Shown here piece by piece: positions 764-49,098 of a stretch of DNA of 64,000 bases. Source of the DNA: Cenarchaeum sp. (GTDB lineage: Archaea > Thermoproteota > Nitrososphaeria > Nitrososphaerales > Nitrosopumilaceae); contig OZ242221.1 in NCBI GenBank assembly GCA_965206845.1, positions 384,001 through 448,000 of the forward strand, written 5' to 3'. How positions within the stretch are numbered: position 1 is the stretch's first letter; each line of letters opens with the position of its first letter. Under the pieces are notes generated by a model that was not told where the DNA came from, did not search any database, and saw only the letters and a program-made list of their open reading frames with translations. Position numbers and translations under genes: made by a program.

Positions 764-2035
764 GTGAACATAACTGAGAAGATACTGGCACGGGCATCCG
801 GCAGGGACCGCGTGGTCCCCGACGACGTCATATTTGCAGATGTGGACAGGGTGATGGTCCACGACGTTTCGGGGCCCGGCGTGCTCAAGGTGTTTGAGAG
901 GCTAAGGGAGCAGGGCATACCAGTAGACAGGCTCAAGGATCCCTCCAAGGTGTGGGTCGCAGAGGACCACTTTGTCCCCTCGGCCGACAAGATATCAGCG
1001 GAGAACATAGTCAAGCTGTCCAACTTTACAAGGGAGTACGGCATCGAGAAGCACTTCCGGTACGGCATGGGCCAGTACGGAATATGCCACACGCTCTCGC
1101 ACGAGGAGGCGCTAGTCCTTCCCGGCCAGGTGTACGTGGGCGGCGACTCGCACACCAACACCACTGGGGCCTTGGGCGCCTTTGCATGCGGCCTCGGACA
1201 CACAGACGTGGCGTACGTCCTGCTAAACGGCAGAATCTGGTTCAAGGTACCAGAGACGCTATACTTTCAGATAAACGGCAGGCTGCCGGATCACGTAATG
1301 GCCAAGGACCTGATCCTGAGGATAATCGGCGAGATCGGGACCGACGGCGGGGCGTACAGAGCGATGCAGTTTGGGGGCAGCGGGGTGGAGAACATGTCAG
1401 TGGAGGGAAGGCTCACCCTGACCAACATGACCACCGAGGCAGGCGCCAAGAACGGAATCATCGAGCCGGACCAAAAGGTCTACGACTACTTGGACGGACA
1501 CGGCGCCGCGAGCTACACCCCCGTACACGGGGACGGTGACGCCGAGTATGCCAGGGTGTACGAGTACGAGGCAGAAGAGCTTGAGCCCGTTGTCGCAGAG
1601 CCGTTCTCCCCTGCGAACATATCCGTGGTAAGGGAGGCGCCGTCCACGCCCCTGGACAAGGCATACATCGGATCCTGCACCGGCGCCAAGATGGAGGACC
1701 TGGAGGCAGCGGCAAGGGTGCTCAAGGGAAAGACCGTAAAGATAAGAACAGAGGTCCTGCCAGCGGCAATCTCGATATACAAGAGGGCGGCCGACAGCGG
1801 ACTGCTGAAGATATTCCTTGATGCCGGAGCCGTGGTGGGCCCGCCGACCTGCGGCGCATGCTGCGGCGCGCACATGGGGGTCCTGGCAAAGGGCGAGGTG
1901 TGCATCAGCACCACCAACAGGAACTTTCCCGGGCGCATGGGGCATGTCGAGTCCAGGACGTACCTGGCGTCGCCCCAGGTGACTGCCGCATCGGCGGTGA
2001 CCGGCAGGATAACTGACCCGAGGGATCTGGATTGA
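764..2035 (+). CDS. Archaeal-type homoaconitase/isopropylmalate isomerase large subunit
   Basis: Aconitase-family motifs DH, GICH, GGDSHT, IGSCT, CGACCG, STTNRNFPGRMG. Confidence 0.9.
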   Translation: MNITEKILARASGRDRVVPDDVIFADVDRVMVHDVSGPGVLKVFERLREQGIPVDRLKDPSKVWVAEDHFVPSADKISAENIVKLSNFTREYGIEKHFRYGMGQYGICHTLSHEEALVLPGQVYVGGDSHTNTTGALGAFACGLGHTDVAYVLLNGRIWFKVPETLYFQINGRLPDHVMAKDLILRIIGEIGTDGGAYRAMQFGGSGVENMSVEGRLTLTNMTTEAGAKNGIIEPDQKVYDYLDGHGAASYTPVHGDGDAEYARVYEYEAEELEPVVAEPFSPANISVVREAPSTPLDKAYIGSCTGAKMEDLEAAARVLKGKTVKIRTEVLPAAISIYKRAADSGLLKIFLDAGAVVGPPTCGACCGAHMGVLAKGEVCISTTNRNFPGRMGHVESRTYLASPQVTAASAVTGRITDPRDLD

Positions 2036-2520
2036 GGGGCGGCGTCATCAAGTATGCGCAGGACAACATAGACACGGACGTCATAATACCAGGCATGTAC
2101 CTCAAGATTCACGACTATGCGGAGCTTGCTACGCATGCCATGGAGGGGCTGGATCCCGACTTTCACTCCAAGGTGAAGAAGGGGGACTTTGTGCTTGCGG
2201 GGAAGAACTTTGGATGCGGCTCGTCCCGGGAGCATGCGCCGATCGCGCTTGCCCATTCCGGAATCCAGGCGGTGCTGGCGCTCTCCTTTGCCAGGATATT
2301 TTACAGGAATGCGGTGGACGGCGCCTTTCTTCTCCCCATCGAGGTGGACGAGTCCACGTACTCGGCAATCTCCCAGGGCGACGAGCTTGAGATCGACACC
2401 GCAACATCCAGGATACGCAACATCACAAGGAACGAGACCTACAGGATGAAGCCGTTTCCGGACATAATTGCCAAGATCGTGGCAGCGGGCGGGCTCTTCA
2501 AGTTCAGGCCCGAGGAGTAG
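2032..2520 (+). CDS. Homoaconitase/isopropylmalate isomerase small subunit
   Basis: NIDTDVIIP and NFGCGSSREHA motifs; overlaps the large-subunit stop. Confidence 0.9.
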   Translation: MRGGVIKYAQDNIDTDVIIPGMYLKIHDYAELATHAMEGLDPDFHSKVKKGDFVLAGKNFGCGSSREHAPIALAHSGIQAVLALSFARIFYRNAVDGAFLLPIEVDESTYSAISQGDELEIDTATSRIRNITRNETYRMKPFPDIIAKIVAAGGLFKFRPEE

Positions 2521-2523
2521 ACC

Positions 2524-3927
2524 ATGGCGAGGACGCTCTTTGGTAAGATATGGGACGCGCACGTAGTGGCAGACGGTCGCCCGTCACTCCTGTACATAGA
2601 CAGGCACCTGGTACATGAGGTGACCTCGCCGCAGGCGTTTGACGGGCTGCGCAAGAGCAACAGGGGCGTGCGGCGCCCGGACCTGACTGTGGCCACGGTG
2701 GATCACAACATACCGACGACCAACCGCTCCCTTCCCATAGCGGACCAGACGTCCCTCATACAGATACAGACCCTGGAGAGGAACTGCCGGGACTTTGGGA
2801 TCAGGCTGTTCGGGATGGGCAGCGCCGGCCAGGGTATCGTGCATGTCATAGGGCCACAGATGGGAATCACGCTGCCCGGCACCACCATCGTCTGCGGGGA
2901 CAGCCACACCTCGACGCACGGCGCCTTTGGCGCCTTGGCGCTGGGAATCGGAACGAGTGAGGTGGAGCATGTGCTGGCATCGCAGACCCTCTGGCTGGAG
3001 AGGCCGGAGCCCTTTGAGGTCGTGGTGACAGGAAAGAGGGGCCCCACCATAACCGCCAAGGACGTCATACTGTCCATAATAAGGAACATCGGCACCGCCG
3101 GCGGAACCGGCACGGTGATCGAGTACAGGGGATCCGGAATATCTGACATGTCCATGGAACAGAGGATGACCGTGTGCAACATGTCCATTGAGGCAGGAGC
3201 CCGCGCAGGCCTCATCGCCCCAGATGAGAAGACGTTCCGGTACCTGCGGGGCCGCAGGTACACGCCCGAGGACTATGAGGAGATGGTGGATGCATGGAGA
3301 CGGGATCTCACCACGGACTCCGGGGCCACGTTTGCAAAGTCATACACGATACACGCCGACGAGATCGCCCCCCAGGTGAGCTGGGGAACCAACCCCGCCA
3401 TGACCTGCGACGTCACCCAGTCGGTGCCGTTTCCCGAGGACTATGCCGGGGACGACCCCGGCCAGGTGCGCGGCGCAAAGAAGGCGCTGGAGTACATGGA
3501 CCTGAGGCCCGGCACCCCCATCACCGAGATCCCCGTGGACCGGGTCTTTATCGGCTCGTGCACCAACGCCCGGCTGGAGGATCTGATCGATGCCGCCCGC
3601 GCAGCCCGCGGCCGCAGGGTGGCCCCGGGTGTTGACGCAATGGTGGTGCCCGGCTCCCAGGACGTCAAAAGGCAGGCAGAGGAGATGGGCCTTGACAGGG
3701 TATTTCGGGACGCGGGCTTTGAGTGGCGCGAGTCCGGCTGCAGCATGTGCCTTGGGATGAACCCGGACATACTCGAACCCGGCCAGCGGTGCGCCAGTAC
3801 GTCAAACCGCAACTTTGAGGGCCGCCAGGGAGCCGGGGGAAGGACCCACCTGGTGAGCCCCGTGATGGCAGCGGCCGCCGCGGTAAGCGGGCACTTTGTG
3901 GACGTAAGAGAGATGGACCTGAACTGA
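2524..3927 (+). CDS. leuC: 3-isopropylmalate dehydratase large subunit (bacterial type)
   Basis: [52 protein letters not shown]. Confidence 0.93.
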
Positions 3928-3928
3928 G

Positions 3929-4507
3929 ATGGAGCCCTTTGCAGAGATCCGCAGCACCGCGGTGTTGCTGGACAAGGTGAACGTGGACACGGACCAGATA
4001 GTGCCCAAGCAGTTCCTCAAGAGGGTGCAGAAGACCGGCTTCGGCAAGTGCCTCTTCTTTAACTGGCGCTTTGATCAGCAGGGCGCTCCAGATCCGGGAT
4101 TTGTCCTCAACGAGCCCCGGTACCGGGACTCGCAGATACTGGTAACCGGGGAGAACTTTGGGTGCGGCTCGTCCCGGGAGCACGCGGTGTGGGCCCTGCT
4201 GGACTACGGGTTCCGCGCGGTCATAGCCCCGTCCTTTGGCGACATCTTCTACAGCAACTGCTTCAAGAACGGCCTGCTGCCGATCAGGCTTGGCCGGGAC
4301 GAGATAGGCCGGCTCGGGGCCGGCACGATCCGCATCGACCTGGAGTCCCAGGAGATCACGTCCGGATCAGGCAGGATACCGTTCACAATAGACCCCCACA
4401 AGAAGAGGATACTGCTGGAAGGACTGGACGACATAGCCTTGACCCTCAGGCTGGAAGACAAGATATCAGACTATGAGCGGCGCACTAGGCTGCCATCCGT
4501 CGTATGA
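3929..4507 (+). CDS. leuD: 3-isopropylmalate dehydratase small subunit
   Basis: NVDTDQIVPKQFLK, NFGCGSSREHA, FGDIFYSNCFKNG. Confidence 0.93.
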   Translation: MEPFAEIRSTAVLLDKVNVDTDQIVPKQFLKRVQKTGFGKCLFFNWRFDQQGAPDPGFVLNEPRYRDSQILVTGENFGCGSSREHAVWALLDYGFRAVIAPSFGDIFYSNCFKNGLLPIRLGRDEIGRLGAGTIRIDLESQEITSGSGRIPFTIDPHKKRILLEGLDDIALTLRLEDKISDYERRTRLPSVV

Positions 4508-5204
4508 TCCCGCTGGCAAGGGAGGCGTTTCTCTCCAGGGTCGCAGGCGAGCCGACATCCATCCAGTCCTCGTCCGTGTTGTAGGCGCTCACGCCGCCCC
4601 GCTGCGCCAGCCCCTGCAGTATGTCATAGGACAGGTTGACGCTGCCCTGCACCTGCCTTATCATCGGAAGGATCCCAGTCGAGAGGATGTATATCCCCAG
4701 GCACTCTGCCATGGGCAGCCGCACCGTGGGCTTTTCGCTGAAGCTTCGCACCATGCCGTCGGCCACGTCGGCAAAGCCGGTCTCCTCCCTCCTGCTGGTC
4801 CGGGTTGCGATGCATGCGAGGCCGCCCTTCTCTTGAAAGTGCGACAGCATTGCGGATATGTCCAGCGCGCACAGGTTGTCCACAAACCATAGCAGGAACT
4901 CCTGCGACCCCTCCAAGGCCTGCTGGGCGTGAAGCAGGTCCCCGCCGGTGCCGGACTGGGAGTCCTGGACCAGCGTGATCCCTTTTTTGCGGCGGGAGCC
5001 CTCCAGGTAGTTCCTTATCTGGCCGCCCAGCCCCTCAAAGTCAGATATTATGATCACCCCGTCGATCACGTCTGAGGCGCAGACGTGATCCAGGATGTAG
5101 TCGATCAGCGGCCGGTTGCCCACTGGGAACATGGCCTTGGGGATGTAGTCGGTGTACGGCTTTCCCCGGGTGCCACTGCCACCGGCTAAAATTACCGCCT
5201 TCAC
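4485..5204 (-). CDS. Sugar-phosphate nucleotidyltransferase
   Basis: N-terminal MKAVILAGGSGTR...PKAM; FSEKP; WMDVG. Confidence 0.88.
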   Translation of the reverse strand: MKAVILAGGSGTRGKPYTDYIPKAMFPVGNRPLIDYILDHVCASDVIDGVIIISDFEGLGGQIRNYLEGSRRKKGITLVQDSQSGTGGDLLHAQQALEGSQEFLLWFVDNLCALDISAMLSHFQEKGGLACIATRTSRREETGFADVADGMVRSFSEKPTVRLPMAECLGIYILSTGILPMIRQVQGSVNLSYDILQGLAQRGGVSAYNTDEDWMDVGSPATLERNASLASGIIRRMAA

Positions 5205-5207
5205 GCC

Positions 5208-5657
5208 CTAACGGTAGGACTTTTGCTTTCGTCTTCTTGCACCGGGGCCGCCGAACTTTTTGGGTTCCTTCATCCTGGCGTCGCCGCTGATCAGATACTT
5301 GTCATATACCGAGATTCTCTTTCGCAGGTCTTCCCTGATGGATTTGGGAAACGGGTGATCCCTGGGCTCCTTCTTGCTCTTGGTCCAGCCTGTTAGCGCC
5401 CGAGATATGGCAGTCGCCACGGCGCTGGCCTGCCCCGAGTGGCCGCCGCCCCTTACCCGGACAGATATGTTCACCCTGGTTCTGAGGTCTCCTGCTATCT
5501 CCAGCGGAGCCAGGATTGCTTCCCGGGACATCTCGTGTCCGATCATCTCCACCGGCACGTTGTTTATCCTGATCCTGCCGTTGCCCTTGGTTATGTAGAC
5601 GTGGGCGCTGGCAGTCTTTCTTGTTGCAAAGTAGATCTCCGTCTTGGGCGTGGTCAT
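5208..5657 (-). CDS. rps9: 30S ribosomal protein S9
   Basis: RKTASA, VRGGGHSGQA, EPKKFGGPGARRRKQKSYR. Confidence 0.96.
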   Translation of the reverse strand: MTTPKTEIYFATRKTASAHVYITKGNGRIRINNVPVEMIGHEMSREAILAPLEIAGDLRTRVNISVRVRGGGHSGQASAVATAISRALTGWTKSKKEPRDHPFPKSIREDLRKRISVYDKYLISGDARMKEPKKFGGPGARRRKQKSYR

Positions 5658-26556: not shown

Positions 26557-27120
26557 CTATGGAACGACGCTGACCACGTGGATCTCTACCGTCTCGCCCT
26601 GAGCATCGCTGGGGCCAGAATGCGGAAAGTGGGCCATCCCGTGGGAGTGCGGAACCGCGGCAGTCTTTACGTGCACCGCAAAGTCGCCCGGGGCCGGCGG
26701 GGTAACGGAGAGCTCAATGTGGTACCGCTCCCCGGCCCCGACATCGCTGCTGGTCGACTCGATGGACGCGTAGGCGCTACCGTCAGATCCGGCGCCATAG
26801 ACCGAGCGTGGCGGGTCGCCCGCTGCCGCATATCTTGGGGGCAGGTCAAAGTCATACCCCACAAGATCCACATGCGCACCGGCATCCTCCAAGCCGGGAA
26901 AGCCGACCGATGTCACCACGAAATCCGCAAAGTCGCGGTCGTTTACCACGTCCACCCGCAGGCGAAACGACTCGCCCAGGGAGATCACGTCATCGGACAC
27001 GGTGACGGAATGGACCGGTGCAGGATACGAGGTATAGCTCTCCAGGTATAGCGGCGGCACCACCGCCACCATAACTGCAAAGTATGCCGCCACCGCCGCG
27101 ATCACCACCAGTACCTTCAT
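26557..27120 (-). CDS. Membrane-anchored/secreted beta-sandwich protein of unknown function
   Basis: Hydrophobic N-terminal segment followed by a beta-rich acidic domain; TATA-like tattaaa at 27144-27150. Confidence 0.6.
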   Translation of the reverse strand: MKVLVVIAAVAAYFAVMVAVVPPLYLESYTSYPAPVHSVTVSDDVISLGESFRLRVDVVNDRDFADFVVTSVGFPGLEDAGAHVDLVGYDFDLPPRYAAAGDPPRSVYGAGSDGSAYASIESTSSDVGAGERYHIELSVTPPAPGDFAVHVKTAAVPHSHGMAHFPHSGPSDAQGETVEIHVVSVVP

Positions 27121-27139
27121 CGCTCACTGTTTGTGCAGG

Positions 27140-27340
27140 GTGGTTTAATAGTTGATCAGGGAATTATATACAAAAGTACACAGTACCTTTGCCTTTTGCT
27201 GGCGCTCTTGCACTGCCTCCCACGCTTGGCTCTCGCGTGCTGTTTGCGGAACGCGCGGGAGCAATCCCGCGCTGACTTCTCGCGCCTTCAGACGACAATC
27301 CCTGCCGCCCTGCCGCCACGGCTTCCGCCCTGGAGGCAAT
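27140..27340 (-). ncRNA. Predicted omegaRNA/reRNA scaffold plus flanking guide
   Basis: The region after RuvC-III overlaps the element end, as in TnpB systems, and contains an 8-bp hairpin gcgcggga-N4-tcccgcgc (27253-27272). Boundaries are inferred. Confidence 0.45.
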
Positions 27341-29076
27341 GTTATGCGCGGCATTCACGTCCGCGTCGATGTCATTGTAACACTTGTCATTGGTGCAGCG
27401 GAACTCCCCCCGCGACACCCTGGATTCCTTGTCCTTGCGCCCGCAGGCGCTGCATGTTATGCTCGTCCCCTTGGGGTCCACCATTATCACGGTGACGCCC
27501 GCGTTCTTGCAGGCGCCCTTTATCTGGCGCTGGAACGTGCCCGGCCTCGAGTAGGCCATCTCGCGGTTGAGCCCCGTCTTTGCCGAGCTTCCCTTGCCCT
27601 TTACCTTGGCTGTCATGTTGTTGAGGTCCAGATCCTCCATAACCACCGTTCCCGCGCCGTCCGCTATCTTCTTGGAGGCGTGCCTTTCCCAGTTCGTCTG
27701 GCGGTTGGCTATCTTTTCCCTCTTTTTCCGGATCCTCCTGTGGAGTTCCTTGTAGCCCCTTGACTTTGGCTTCCTCGGCTTGTTCCTGTTGTGGCCGCTG
27801 GTGTTGTTCTTGGTGTCGCCGTTGGTGCCGGTACCACCGTCCGCGCCCTCGCTTACGCCGTCCGCGCCCTCCTTGGCGTCCTGCCTGATCCTGCGGTTGC
27901 CGCGTCCCCCGCGCTTCCGTGAGAGCTCCGAGTACATTTTCGATATGTCGTCGTTCTTGGAGCGCCTGCAGCCCTTGGGGAGGTCATAAAACGCGTGGCT
28001 GCCCGTGTCCAGGTCGACTGTGGCGGCGCCATGGACTATGCCCATATCGACCCCGCGTACGGTGCCGGATTCCGATGACTCTGGAGCCCTGGTTTTGACC
28101 TGGATGTGGAGCCTGTATGTCCTGTTGTGGCTCTCGGTGCGCTTGGTCGTCTTCTTCGTGGTCTCGACGAGCTGGAAGGATCGCATGTCCAATCCCTCCA
28201 CGTTGCCGTGCACCCTCACGGTGCCTATGGCGGGAAGGTGCAGCAGGCCGTTGCCCTTGTACACGGGACGCTTGAACACAGTTAGGGCCTTCGTTTCCCC
28301 CTTTTTGCTGAACAGGGTGTCCCTGAAGCGCCACTTGTTCCTCTTGTTGCTCCACTTGTTGGACGGCAGGTTGGGCGCGGTGTCGATGTCCTTGACGCCC
28401 TCCTTTTCCCTGTATTTCCTGGCCAGGTACTTCCATAATGACTTGTTGCGGCGCTTTTTGCCGTTTGACTTCATGAACTTCTTTACCGCGTCCAGGCCCT
28501 GCTGGAGCCCCGCCCTCTGCACCCTGCTGTCGCAGGCCTCCCTGAGTCCTGCTGCCGGCGCGTCCTCGTCGTGTACGAGCCACGCCCTCCCGTCCCTCCA
28601 TTTGGTGAGCATGCTGTTGAGGTCGAACTTGGTTGTCCTCGGGTCGTTGAGCTTCTCCTTGACTGCCATGTTGAATGCCCACCTCTGCTGGTCCATGTGA
28701 CGGGATATGAGATCCGACAGCTCTCCGGACTGGTCAAAGTCCACCTTTATGGTGCGCACCATGGAGCCCTCCATTGAGCGCCTTGGCCACTTTTTTGGCT
28801 TCTGCGGCGCCGTAGATGCCGCTGTTGGGGTTGCAGCTGCAGGCGCTGTTGCCGCCATTCTGGCTTTCATCTCTACAGGAACATACCACGTGTTGCATAA
28901 AAGGTGACGCGGCGCCGCCGCGCCGGCCGTCAGCCCTGCAATGGCGACCGATGCCGTTGTGCGGCCCGTGCGGTTCCGGCCGTCATGGTTGCCGCGCGGG
29001 CGCCGCGCAATGGAAGCGCGCCCGACGTGAAGCCGAAAAAGTGTAGAAGGCCGGTGTACTTTTGTATATAATTCCC
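27159..29076 (-). mobile_element. Non-autonomous TIR transposon carrying only tnpB
   Basis: Perfect 23-bp TIRs gggaattatatacaaaagtacac (27159-27181 and reverse complement 29054-29076); 8-bp direct repeat gttgatca on both flanks (27151-27158, 29077-29084). Confidence 0.92.
27164..28870 (-). CDS. tnpB: RNA-guided endonuclease TnpB, 568 aa
   Basis: RuvC-I RGVDMG, RuvC-II VVMEDL, TSITCSACG...FRC...C zinc finger, RuvC-III DADVNAAHNI. TATA-like ttttatg lies about 26 nt upstream of ATG 28870, and the stop codon lies inside the TIR. Confidence 0.9.
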   Translation of the reverse strand: MKARMAATAPAAATPTAASTAPQKPKKWPRRSMEGSMVRTIKVDFDQSGELSDLISRHMDQQRWAFNMAVKEKLNDPRTTKFDLNSMLTKWRDGRAWLVHDEDAPAAGLREACDSRVQRAGLQQGLDAVKKFMKSNGKKRRNKSLWKYLARKYREKEGVKDIDTAPNLPSNKWSNKRNKWRFRDTLFSKKGETKALTVFKRPVYKGNGLLHLPAIGTVRVHGNVEGLDMRSFQLVETTKKTTKRTESHNRTYRLHIQVKTRAPESSESGTVRGVDMGIVHGAATVDLDTGSHAFYDLPKGCRRSKNDDISKMYSELSRKRGGRGNRRIRQDAKEGADGVSEGADGGTGTNGDTKNNTSGHNRNKPRKPKSRGYKELHRRIRKKREKIANRQTNWERHASKKIADGAGTVVMEDLDLNNMTAKVKGKGSSAKTGLNREMAYSRPGTFQRQIKGACKNAGVTVIMVDPKGTSITCSACGRKDKESRVSRGEFRCTNDKCYNDIDADVNAAHNIASRAEAVAAGRQGLSSEGARSQRGIAPARSANSTREPSVGGSARAPAKGKGTVYFCI

Positions 29077-29183
29077 GTTGATCACACCGGGGGTTTGCTG
29101 CTTCCGCCCCGGGGCACTCTGCCCTGGCGCGGCCCGGGCAGCAGACAGAATACATTAAATGAATCCAGACACAGGGATACACC

Positions 29184-30263
29184 ATGGAGGTTTCGCAGGC
29201 GCCGGCCCTGATGTCTGCGCGCAAGAGGTTCCTGCTTGCCAGCATGACAGTCAGCCTTGGCTCCATGATAACCATCACGGCCGGATTCTGGGACGTCATG
29301 AACCACGTCCTAAACAGGCCGGAGTCGTTCTTCTCCCCTCCCCACGCCATGCTCTACTCTGGCGTCGCGATCGCCCTGGCCGGATCAGTCATGGCATTTG
29401 TGTTCTGGAGGGGGCTCGATCCGTCCGCACGGGCGGCCTGGCGCTTTCCCTTCAGGCTGGGCATCGTGGGAATCTTCATCCTGGTCGGGGCCGGCCCCGC
29501 AGACTTTGCGTGGCACTCGAACTTTGGCCTGGACGGGCTGCTCTCGCCCCCTCACCAGGTTCTGCTTGCGGGCATGCTGCTGTGCGCCGTCGCCCCGGCA
29601 GTCGTGATTCTTCGCTACGGAATGGACCACGTACGATCCCGCGGCGCCCTCACGGGCATGGCCATATTCTCGCTTCTTCCGGTGTGGATGAGCGCAACGG
29701 GATTCCTGTACTCGTACACCCTGCCGTTCTCAAACACCGACTTTTTCACCTACAATCCCGACATCTGGTTTGCGGTGGTATTTGCCACCGTGTCGATGCC
29801 GTTCCTGTACGCCATAGTCCTCACTCTGGCGTCCCGGCTGGTCCGATACCGGTTTGGGGCGGTGTCCGGCCTGGGCTTTATGCTGCTGGCGATAAACGCG
29901 GCAAGCGTCATAGCCTCAAACCCCGCCCTCGTCGAGACGATTCCGTTCTACTTTCTGACCATGATACCGTTTGTGGCAGCCGACATCATGATGGCAACGT
30001 ACAGGAACAGGGCTGGCATTGCAGCCGCCGGGGCCATCATAGGATCCGCCTTTTACTTTGCATATTTCCCGTTTGTGACGTACGTCTACAACGAGGTGAT
30101 CTTTACCCGTGCAATATCGGGCAGCGTCACGTTCCAGGTCTTCTTTGAGCAGCTTCCCGTGGTGCTGCCGGCGGTGATAGGCCCCGCCGTCATAATGGGA
30201 ATCCTGGGCGCGATACTCAGCGGGAGGCTTGAGGCGCTAATAGTCGGGCACCGCGCCAGGTAG
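29184..30263 (+). CDS. Polytopic membrane protein with two DxxxH-x12-H motifs
   Basis: Many TM segments; WDVMNHVLNRPESFFSPPH and ADFAWHSNFGLDGLLSPPH. Confidence 0.8.
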   Translation: MEVSQAPALMSARKRFLLASMTVSLGSMITITAGFWDVMNHVLNRPESFFSPPHAMLYSGVAIALAGSVMAFVFWRGLDPSARAAWRFPFRLGIVGIFILVGAGPADFAWHSNFGLDGLLSPPHQVLLAGMLLCAVAPAVVILRYGMDHVRSRGALTGMAIFSLLPVWMSATGFLYSYTLPFSNTDFFTYNPDIWFAVVFATVSMPFLYAIVLTLASRLVRYRFGAVSGLGFMLLAINAASVIASNPALVETIPFYFLTMIPFVAADIMMATYRNRAGIAAAGAIIGSAFYFAYFPFVTYVYNEVIFTRAISGSVTFQVFFEQLPVVLPAVIGPAVIMGILGAILSGRLEALIVGHRAR

Positions 30264-47811: not shown

Positions 47812-47842
47812 CGCCCGCCCCCCTCCCCTAGCGGGGAATAGC

Positions 47843-49053
47843 GGCTGTGTCCTGGAGACACAGCCCCACAATCATCCGCCGGTGTCGTCCCGGTACAGGC
47901 ATTCTTCGAGTTTTTGGGATTGTGGCATTTTTCGCATACCGCCGGCTTCAAAGTCTGTCCGAAACCGTAAAATCCAATCTGATCCAAGGGTGGTGCGCAG
48001 GCTCCCCCACGGGCGGCGCGACGGTTACCGCGCCTGTTACGCAGCCGTTGCAGTGAGCGACTCGTGCGTGAGCCTACCGTCTTTTACTTGCGATCGCGCG
48101 ACCACCTCGATGTTGTAGCAGATGACGCAGGTTGCTGCCTTGCGGCTCTGCCGGGCGCGCCTGCGACTCCTGAGGTGGTTCCCGTACATTCTCTTGATTG
48201 CTCCAAAGACGGCCTCGATTATGCTGCGCTGGTGGCACTCGTCCATGAACCGGGCCAGCCCGTCCCTGTGCGTTCTGGTCATATCGCCCCAGGCCTGGCT
48301 ACCACCGTTCTTGCAGACGGCATTGGACTTGGGCCGGATGCGCGGCACCGTGCCCTTGTCGGATATGGCGTCGCAGATCTTCCTGGCCGGGTAGGCCGAG
48401 TCCAGGCAGAAGAAACCCGTGCCCTCTTCGATCCTTCCCAGCATCGGCCACAATCCTGTGATGTCGGAGGCGTACCCGTCGGTGACCGGGTAGTCTAGGA
48501 CGGTCCTGGTGGAGACGTCGACGATGCTGTGCAGCTTGACCCGGCCGCGCTTGAGCCTGACCTAGTCGTGGCGGACGCTGAACCACCGAACGAACCTGTT
48601 GCTGGAGTGGTCTGTGCTGTCCCCGGCCAACGAGCCGGTCACCATGACCTCGCCGATGATCCTCGTGTGGACCTCCCGCAGGTAAGCCTCGGGAATCATG
48701 CCATAGGCGCGCCGGATGGTGCTCTTGGAGGGTATCCTGGGCAGCCCCACCTTCCGGACCAGATTCGGGTTGATCCTGAGGTGGCCCACCATCTTTCGGC
48801 AGGTGCGCGTCTCGGCATCCATGGGGATGCAGGCGACGGCCATGGACTTTGGCGGGTAGGCGGTCGTGCCGCCCGGTTCGGGTTTGGCCTGGTAGGGGTC
48901 GCCCAGATCCTCTACTATCCCCAGTATCGTGCCCAGTATGAGACCCGGCAGATGCTGCTGGACGCGTTTTCTTTTTTTCATTGGGTCGGGCCGCGATCAT
49001 CGGATCATTACGCCTTGCGATTTTGAGGGAGTATATGTCCGTGGGACACAGCC
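47843..49053 (-). mobile_element. IS5/IS4-superfamily insertion sequence, inactivated
   Basis: TIRs ggctgtgtcc (14/18 when extended) at 47843 and 49053; encloses a DDE transposase gene. Confidence 0.7.
48037..48981 (-). pseudogene. DDE transposase with in-frame TAG at 48562-48564
   Basis: Both ORF halves share one frame; motifs GDST, KLH.IVD, LDSAY, HQRSIIEAVF..IKR. Confidence 0.8.
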
Positions 49054-49098
49054 ACCTGAGGATGTACAGTTTTAACGGAGCAGGCGACGAGACAGCAT

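Follow-up and report, generated by a model that had tools for sequence, protein, structure and literature searches.

TnpB nucleases housed in transposons of the DDE type have been on record since 2023, when Altae-Tran et al. (PMC10691335) described six DDE-transposase-associated TnpB branches (DDE-1 to DDE-6), all with inverted terminal repeats, in which the end of tnpB mostly lies at most 250 bp from the transposon end; solo TnpBs with nearly identical ends were reported there as probably moved in trans, and the main text names IS630 only (DDE-6). A 2026 review (PMC13565253) lists ISL2, IS630 and IS1031, its argument being that prokaryotes seldom have such associations; IS1595 is named neither in these passages of the review nor in the main text of PMC10691335, and the literature mentioning both words, judged by titles and abstracts, does not treat an IS1595-TnpB association. 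Here, we describe a tnpB element lying in a 64,000-nucleotide stretch (the window, numbered from its first letter; G000:C1:384001-448000) of the complete 1.65-Mb genome (57% G+C) of a Cenarchaeum sp., which encodes AmoC and falls in a family of ammonia-oxidising archaea. We regard this element as, very probably, a non-autonomous insertion sequence (IS) of the IS1595 family, in which the transposase gene has been replaced by tnpB plus an omega-RNA scaffold, and which is moved in trans.

The architecture itself, a TnpB in a DDE transposon with solo copies moved in trans, is thus already known and a claim of novelty is unsupported. The initial annotation of the window had linked the transposons that carry TnpB between terminal inverted repeats and target-site duplications chiefly to eukaryotes (the Fanzor hosts), a premise that the six DDE branches of PMC10691335 do not support. 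Similarly to those branches, the present element has its tnpB within an inverted-repeat transposon, with the 3' end close to the tip (5 nt here), and its solo tnpB is bounded by the ends of transposase-bearing elements and taken as moved in trans. Its ends are of the IS1595 type, whereas the main text on those branches names IS630 only, and no secure composite of transposase and tnpB was found here. What the locus adds is a covariation-supported omega RNA running through the inverted repeat, a candidate one-base motif and candidate transposases.

Fanzor1 is reportedly carried by eukaryotic transposons with terminal inverted repeats and target-site duplications, in work attributed to Bao and Jurka in 2013 and to a Sci Adv paper of 2023. 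Common to both cases is a TnpB-type nuclease riding cut-and-paste DDE transposons that make target duplications. However, the host here is an ammonia-oxidising archaeon, and among solved structures its protein is closest by sequence to those of TnpB and Cas12f (5.7e-13 to 2e-10), the sole giant-virus TnpB-like chain reaching 7.8e-05 only. In contrast to Fanzor1, the duplication here cannot itself be the target-adjacent motif, because it is variable.

The element, its copies and its ends

The unit measures 1,918 bp (window 27159-29076) and is flanked on both sides by the exact 8-bp duplication GTTGATCA, read directly at 27151-27158 (tnpB 3' end) and 29077-29084 (tnpB 5' end), an 8/8 match immediately outside both arms. 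The inverted-repeat search of the region returned these arms at 27159-27181 and 29054-29076, 23 nt long, 100% complementary and spaced by 1872 nt, the other inverted pairs of the region being 71-83% complementary or much shorter. The tip of the repeat, GGGAATTATATA, is common to all copies of the element. The tnpB gene (27164-28870, minus strand) ends with a TAA codon at 27164-27166, which falls within the left repeat at a distance of 5 nt from its tip. Repeat search and direct reading therefore confirm the unit as it had been annotated, with its 1,918 bp, perfect 23-bp ends, exact 8-bp duplication and single tnpB stopping inside the repeat.

This tnpB is the only long frame of the unit yielding a known protein, of 568 amino acids from a likely ATG at 28868-28870, with a conserved core starting at MVRTIKV (28762). 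Pfam recognises Cas12f1-like_TNB (8.6e-16) and OrfB_IS605 (30.5 bits, exactly at the cut-off), and NCBIfam recognises guided_TnpB (115 bits, cut-off 100), whereas the scores for IS200_TnpB (50 bits vs a cut-off of 425) and IS607_TnpB (57 vs 350) fall far short. The three RuvC acidic residues and the zinc finger reported by the initial annotation are all kept: D239, E376 and D468, as well as C437, C440, C456 and C461, are invariant in an alignment of ten copies from this genome, the aligned proteins being 67-79% identical to this TnpB. Over the 45 pairs of ten copies, the ratio of nonsynonymous to synonymous change (dN/dS) of the tnpB body is 0.23, with a synonymous divergence (dS) of 0.73, which indicates that the body is under purifying selection.

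The 23-nt end recurs in the genome (15 occurrences with up to 3 mismatches, as compared to 0 for the reversed control), which excludes chance. With looser end scans, 15 elements running from end to end (1,829-2,644 bp) were delimited in this genome, along with solo ends and fragments. In each of these elements tnpB is the only family-matching gene (the element at 870565 is broken by an unrelated IS), and the flanking duplications, all different in sequence, match at 8/8 in 10 elements, at 7/8 in 2 and at 6/8, 5/8 and 1/8 in the others. Where the initial annotation had looked to a genome search for further copies bounded by the same repeats, the genome thus holds 15 elements, 10 of them with exact, differing duplications. 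Their pairwise DNA identity is 67-84%, and the nearest sister of the window element is 82% identical to it. A TnpB profile gave 22 matches in the genome, all within these elements or their fragments and none outside; 13 of them span nearly the whole protein, 11 without a stop.

No transposase was found inside the 15 elements by a family search with E up to 10 (best 0.2), and no remnant of one either; because none of the copies has a transposase match, we regard the element as non-autonomous. The insertions must be much younger than the split of the lineages, because exact duplications and perfect ends could not outlast the neutral change that a dS of 0.73 implies; conservative cut-and-paste movement of the single-copy lineages would fit this. 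In the relative G222, near-identical copies (end branches of 0.0035-0.057 in a quick tree) point to recent movement of the family.

The IS1595 identity of the shell comes from elements that share its tips. A search with the 13-mer tip among 60 relatives found several copies in G018 only, and among 400 genomes of the phylum the multi-copy carriers all belong to the same family (G000, 24; G397, 22; G222, 11; G018, 8; G374, 2), single hits elsewhere being at chance level. In G018, the tip GGGAATTATATAC, which begins 2 nt past the frame's first base, directly precedes a 332-aa frame that Pfam assigns to DDE_Tnp_IS1595 (5.9e-40) and Zn_ribbon_IS1595, and NCBIfam to 'IS1595 family transposase' (NF033547; 174 bits, cut-off 75). 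Two further G018 copies have the same tip-transposase layout, and the tip is exact in L048 and L037, with 2 mismatches in L176. Three viral contigs each harbour a complete element (L214, 1,882 bp; L204, 1,630 bp; L244, 1,443 bp) that encodes an IS1595 transposase between ends GGGAATTATATACATGAGT... and is flanked by an 8/8 duplication. Transposase-bearing elements with the same ends as the tnpB unit exist, and in G018 and these viral contigs we have the DDE partners that the initial annotation had hoped for. Its guess of an IS1595/IS256-like family held for IS1595, since the shared ends precede or bound NCBIfam-confirmed transposases, and failed for IS256. Its proposal of a transposase-less DDE-type element mobilised in trans gains support from the copies with different duplications and from the transposase partners with the same ends. 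The shell of the element is thus IS1595-type, and the element a non-autonomous derivative.

A duplication of 8 bp is reportedly the value of the IS1595 family, which is also said to include passenger-carrying 'transporter' forms and miniature inverted-repeat transposable elements (MITEs), in ISfinder and in the work of Siguier, Gagnevin and Chandler in 2009. The present element shares with that family the ends of elements with an NCBIfam-confirmed transposase, the 8-bp duplication, a passenger slot like that of L214 and the occurrence of transposase-less derivatives. It differs in that its cargo is a predicted RNA-guided nuclease, that an RNA is predicted to run through the inverted repeat, that a frame ends inside the repeat, and that the family's own DDE (DDNK-type) transposase is lacking in all 15 copies. 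The passenger of L214 (2001-3882) is a 247-aa frame located after the transposase, which resembles, by eye, a PAPS-reductase-type ATP pyrophosphatase. Among the loci examined there is no secure case of a transposase and a tnpB inside one pair of these ends: L158/L159, considered as a composite, are adjacent yet separate elements, and L160 is decayed and ambiguous.

The genome G000 itself has two relatives of the G018 transposase, one decayed and one open. The decayed copy (1466759-1467163) adjoins the solo end GGGAATTATATACACAAGTAGCA. The open gene (G000:C1:27545-28447; 313-aa frame, 160 bits) has kept the catalytic D, D and N/E positions, and its upstream end, GGGGCTTATATCGCTGAGTACAC, is 18/23 identical to GGGAATTATATACATGAGTACAC, a variant of the TnpB-element end; a second end was not found. 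Short repeated words (ACACTTTTGAA; GATCACC...AATTTAAC/GATTTGAAC) occur at G000:C1:27200-27450, just downstream of the open gene, the expected place of the missing second end of that IS. The multi-copy DDE ISs of the genome (IS4/IS5-like, rve, IS630, IS110) were rejected as partners, their ends being different and devoid of the tip GGGAATTATATA.

An alternative, which the initial annotation had itself set against its proposal, is that an IS200/IS605-type (IS1341-like) tnpB element landed in an older MITE, the ends and the duplication being unrelated to tnpB. TnpB-only elements of the IS1341 type are common in archaea, according to PMC13565253, and, similarly to the present element, they have tnpB as their only gene, an RNA scaffold overlapping the tnpB 3' end and a guide taken from the flank. 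Short elements with the same tips, which we class as tnpB-free, also exist (706 bp, G000:C1:938659-939364; 318 bp, in G397; 338 bp, on a viral contig). However, from the following lines of evidence we consider such an origin very improbable. First, the IS1341-type elements have neither inverted ends nor duplication, in the account given by PMC13565253, whereas both are present here. Second, in 15 of the 15 copies the tnpB frame enters the inverted repeat and the RNA abuts the tip, leaving no room for a separate right end. Third, the elements of four other genomes keep this layout even though their TnpBs are about 26-40% identical. Fourth, no Y1 transposase was found in the genome by a search that was positive in 6 of 14 control genomes, no tnpB lies outside the elements, and the IS200_TnpB and IS607_TnpB models do not recognise the protein. 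Fifth, the 706-bp and 318-bp elements hold a tnpB fragment or the RNA module, and for this reason we take the short elements to derive from the long form, not the reverse.

It is also conceivable, though improbable in our view, that the elements are immobile relics whose tnpB was recruited by the host for RNA-guided regulation or defence, the ends and duplications being leftovers. Exapted TnpBs are known (PMC10691335), the copies have long diverged from one another (dS 0.73) while remaining under purifying selection, the genome has no recent pair, and the same insertion is present in several public runs. On the other hand, the catalytic residues are all kept, whereas recruited forms are mostly inactivated according to the same paper; exact 8/8 duplications in 10 of 15 elements, together with perfect ends, would be hard to keep over a dS of 0.73; the near-identical G222 copies speak for recent movement of the family; and fifteen paralogues would be superfluous for a host function. 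The mobile, non-autonomous IS1595-type element thus stays our preferred interpretation.

Outside this genome, a single-protein scan of genome contigs returned 0 close relatives and an alignment-based scan returned 28 loci, and a metagenome scan for TnpB relatives gave distant fragments only (26-42%). In a quick, unrooted tree, the IS1595-ended TnpBs form at least five deep lineages, which implies that the association is old and diversified, and a Nitrosopumilus TnpB clade with other ends is nested among them. A TnpB 28-30% identical to that of the window element (L094-L120) is present in more than 20 copies on two Nitrosopumilus chromosomes from metagenome-assembled genomes (MAGs), in 1.5-kb elements that have different ends (TATAG, 5 nt, AGCGAAAGTTCGTGCAA), are flanked by TA and lack an 8-bp duplication; these could be IS630-type carriers. 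The same tips as in the window element were observed on two contigs labelled as bacterial MAGs. One of them, L093 (Dehalococcoidia; 1174-5340), has an interrupted TnpB, 69% identical, with an IS66-like 443-aa frame upstream, and the other, L116 (Dadabacteria; 995-2290), has the 8/8 duplication AAAACCCC. Both would be explained by mis-binning of the contigs or else by transfer between domains that share a habitat.

Several further features of the element and its genome were recorded. The 5' untranslated part of the element (28871-29053, minus strand) has a high G+C content and little conservation (it aligns in 3 of 14 other copies, at 70-75%), and the frame and family scan found no frame with a family match in it. 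The conserved tip GGGAATTATATAC (window 27159-27171 and 29064-29076) includes a TATA-box-like run, TTATATA; that the element ends might double as archaeal promoter elements is speculation. At G000:C1:1008018 and 1008048 (1008018-1008070), two ends follow each other in tandem with a spacing of 30 nt. The flank of the end at 1333850 (1332002-1333850) is similar, in reverse complement, to that of the end at 1008048, a likeness that suggests a rearrangement by recombination between copies. The genome is unusually IS-rich relative to its size. By self-comparison, window 47840-49070 (G000:C1:431840-433070) is a copy of a 1.23-kb repeat present about nine times, and, judged by size, this copy would fit an IS5-like element that has a DDE_Tnp_1 transposase and ends GGCTGTGTCC.

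A predicted omega RNA ending at the transposon tip

When the copies are compared, the last ~150 nt on the tnpB strand are much better conserved than the gene. From the 15 copies, RNAalifold predicts six helices with 37 pairs, 8 of which show compensatory changes. In pair counts on the same copies, 97.6% of the cells are paired, as compared to 36-52% when the partners are slid by 1-3 columns, and 35 cells are compensatory (1-3 when slid); 0 of 500 shuffles reach the observed covariation score. The structure is assigned to the tnpB sense strand because of several invariant G-U pairs. In the part of tnpB overlapping the RNA, dS falls to 0.19 (vs 0.73 for the gene body) and dN/dS rises to about 1, together the signature of a second constraint, on the nucleic acid. 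We read this structured 3' region, which has no family match in Rfam, as an omega-RNA scaffold, predicted to extend over 27159-27313 on the minus strand, thereby overlapping the C-terminal tail of tnpB and ending at the transposon tip.

A covariance model built from the 15 copies was run over 32 loci. At 15 loci of G222, G397, G374 and G018 with tnpB or a tnpB fragment it matched over its full length, right up to the tnpB-side tip, as it did in the copy on the MAG contig L093, these matches scoring 23-177 bits (E up to 2e-4). The exception is the 1,296-bp tnpB element on L116, which at 10.2 bits (E 0.53) scores no better than transposase-only elements. Indeed, four transposase-only viral elements score 10-18 bits, and five archaeal transposase-only loci have no match at E up to 1. 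The alignment fitted by the model is biased towards the structure; in it, many double changes leave the pairing intact in the closing helix and in the first and last hairpins, with 102 compensatory cells as compared to 9-20 when slid.

Since the scaffold ends at the tip, the guide would, by analogy with known TnpB biology, be taken from the flank and start with the 8-bp duplication. The predicted guide part of the RNA is accordingly placed just past the tnpB-side end (27139-27158, minus strand), its first 8 nt being the duplication (27151-27158) and its length of 20 nt being assumed. The flank past the tnpB-side end is unrelated between copies, as expected of a guide region. In G397, a 318-bp miniature element (L181 201-518; G397:C1:1710543-1710860) has the same tips and the RNA module (22 bits, E 3.7e-4) without tnpB; it may be a guide-RNA-only derivative able to borrow TnpB plus a transposase.

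An orientation-specific G beside the duplication

In all, 28 elements from six genomes and MAG contigs were oriented by their tnpB, namely the 15 of G000 and 13 from G222, G397, G374, G018 and one MAG contig; 20 of them have a duplication of 7/8 or better. Read on the tnpB strand, a G immediately precedes the upstream copy of the duplication, on its 5' side, in 25 of the 28 elements and in 19 of these 20. At the mirror position a C occurs in 5 of the 20 only, which is background; the asymmetry gives 1e-5 in a Fisher test, and the G tested against 28.5% G gives a binomial 6e-10. In the window element this candidate motif base is at 29085 on the minus strand (C on the plus strand), directly 5' of the duplication. 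Among the same 20 elements, position -2 is never A, base 1 of the duplication is T in 14 and base 3 is A in 12.

We propose, as a possibility that we hold with some doubt, that the G directly 5' of the duplication is the target-adjacent motif read by TnpB, or a part of it. The proposal is made because a symmetric transpososome should not sense the direction of tnpB: the preference for G follows the orientation of tnpB even in copies with perfectly symmetric ends of 23-30 nt (the window element, 992385 and 1049606). Alternatively, the conserved G might be a target preference of the transposition machinery, or reflect local sequence, and the guide may start elsewhere. It is quite possible, if short of probable, that this is the case, as just one base is strongly conserved and as the T at base 1 and the A at base 3 of the duplication look like target preferences of the transposase. 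Against it stand the tie of the G to tnpB orientation in the copies with symmetric ends, the background level of C at the mirror position, and the four IS1595 elements without tnpB on viral contigs, which have a G at 3 of 8 ends, although this control is small and comes from other hosts.

Site history, proposed homing and significance

The stretch is present, at half of its words or more, in 15 public runs from about 7 studies, two of which runs are labelled sponge metatranscriptomes. Four public runs were compared, all as contigs of mixed communities, and what follows concerns the contig matches listed, among many more. The X13 contigs bridge both junctions without any difference. The X15 contigs bridge both junctions too, with 19 differences over about 420 nt (about 4.5%) in the left flank and 5 differences plus one deletion over 416 nt (1.4%) in the right flank (window 26700-27150 and 29085-29500, respectively), as compared to 1 difference in about 1,480 nt (about 0.07%) in the contigs listed inside the element. 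The element looks younger than the split from the X15 strain, or copied between strains. This pattern, which recombination or homing that had recently brought the element to the same site in that strain could produce, is reported here as unexplained and not as evidence. The recent insertion suggested by the initial annotation does not follow: the nearest sister is 82% identical, and the same junctions occur in two further public runs, one of them representing a strain with diverged flanks.

The same-genus genome G001 could not serve as an empty-site reference, its DNA being too distant (71% in the neighbouring gene). At the protein level, both flanking genes are adjacent in G001, 94 bp apart, and the end motif is absent from that genome; with one gene inverted relative to the window, this arrangement is only a genus-level hint of the element-free state. 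The neighbours of the element, window 26557-27120 (minus strand) and 29184-30263 (plus strand), diverge, and in G001:C7 (L068) they have the same direction; an inversion breakpoint may lie at or near the insertion site.

We tentatively propose, while regarding it as rather doubtful, that the IS1595-borne TnpB reads an orientation-specific minimal G, that its guide begins with the duplication, and that the transposon thus recognises its own empty site for homing or retention. In our preferred interpretation of the element, which we hold as very probable, an IS1595-family transposase recognising the shared tip GGGAATTATATA mobilises it in trans, the one open gene of that kind kept by G000 (G000:C1:27545-28447) being a candidate source. 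As for the cargo, transcription would cover the last ~150 nt of tnpB, cross the inverted repeat and continue into the flank, so that the guide opens with the 8-bp duplication. Armed with such an RNA, TnpB would cleave its own site where the element is missing (G, 8-bp target, flank), while the occupied site would be spared, the guide-matching DNA there being preceded by ...TTCCC. Repair from the occupied copy would keep or restore the element.

Several points weigh against this picture. TnpBs usually need more than what is here essentially a single-base target-adjacent motif, and the G could instead reflect an orientation-dependent preference of the transposase. The open transposase gene shows only one recognisable end, 18/23 identical, and at the position seven residues past the conserved E it encodes a D, which is K or R in two relatives; this IS of G000 may thus have become immobile or weak. 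Transposition itself was not observed, and no copy pair in the genome is more than 84% identical. No exact element-free allele of the site was found in the contigs of the four public runs, where none of the listed joints skips 27159-29084; from contigs, however, nothing about absence can be concluded. Contigs of two metatranscriptome runs cover parts of tnpB and its 3' end, but their depth sums all family copies and may include DNA carry-over; such RNA-library contigs do not prove transcription and were not counted as expression. Finally, cut-and-paste excision already leaves a break, so that the benefit of a homing nuclease is less obvious (PMC13565253).

If correct, homing guided by the flanking G would account for three observations: the survival of the elements almost only in one orientation relative to that G; the persistence of 15 deeply diverged single-copy lineages; and the near-identity of the element (about 1 difference over 1,480 nt) to that of a strain whose flanks show about 4.5% and 1.4% divergence. 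Genome editors would then also take an interest in so compact a TnpB that is nearly motif-free. The family described here, from a sponge-associated ammonia-oxidising archaeon, is a clean, many-copy natural example of a predicted RNA-guided nuclease in a prokaryotic DDE cut-and-paste transposon, an arrangement thought to be rare outside the eukaryotic Fanzors. Should the G motif and the homing prove true, it would show how a nuclease built for the scarless excision of IS605-type elements was fitted to a transposon with a variable duplication.

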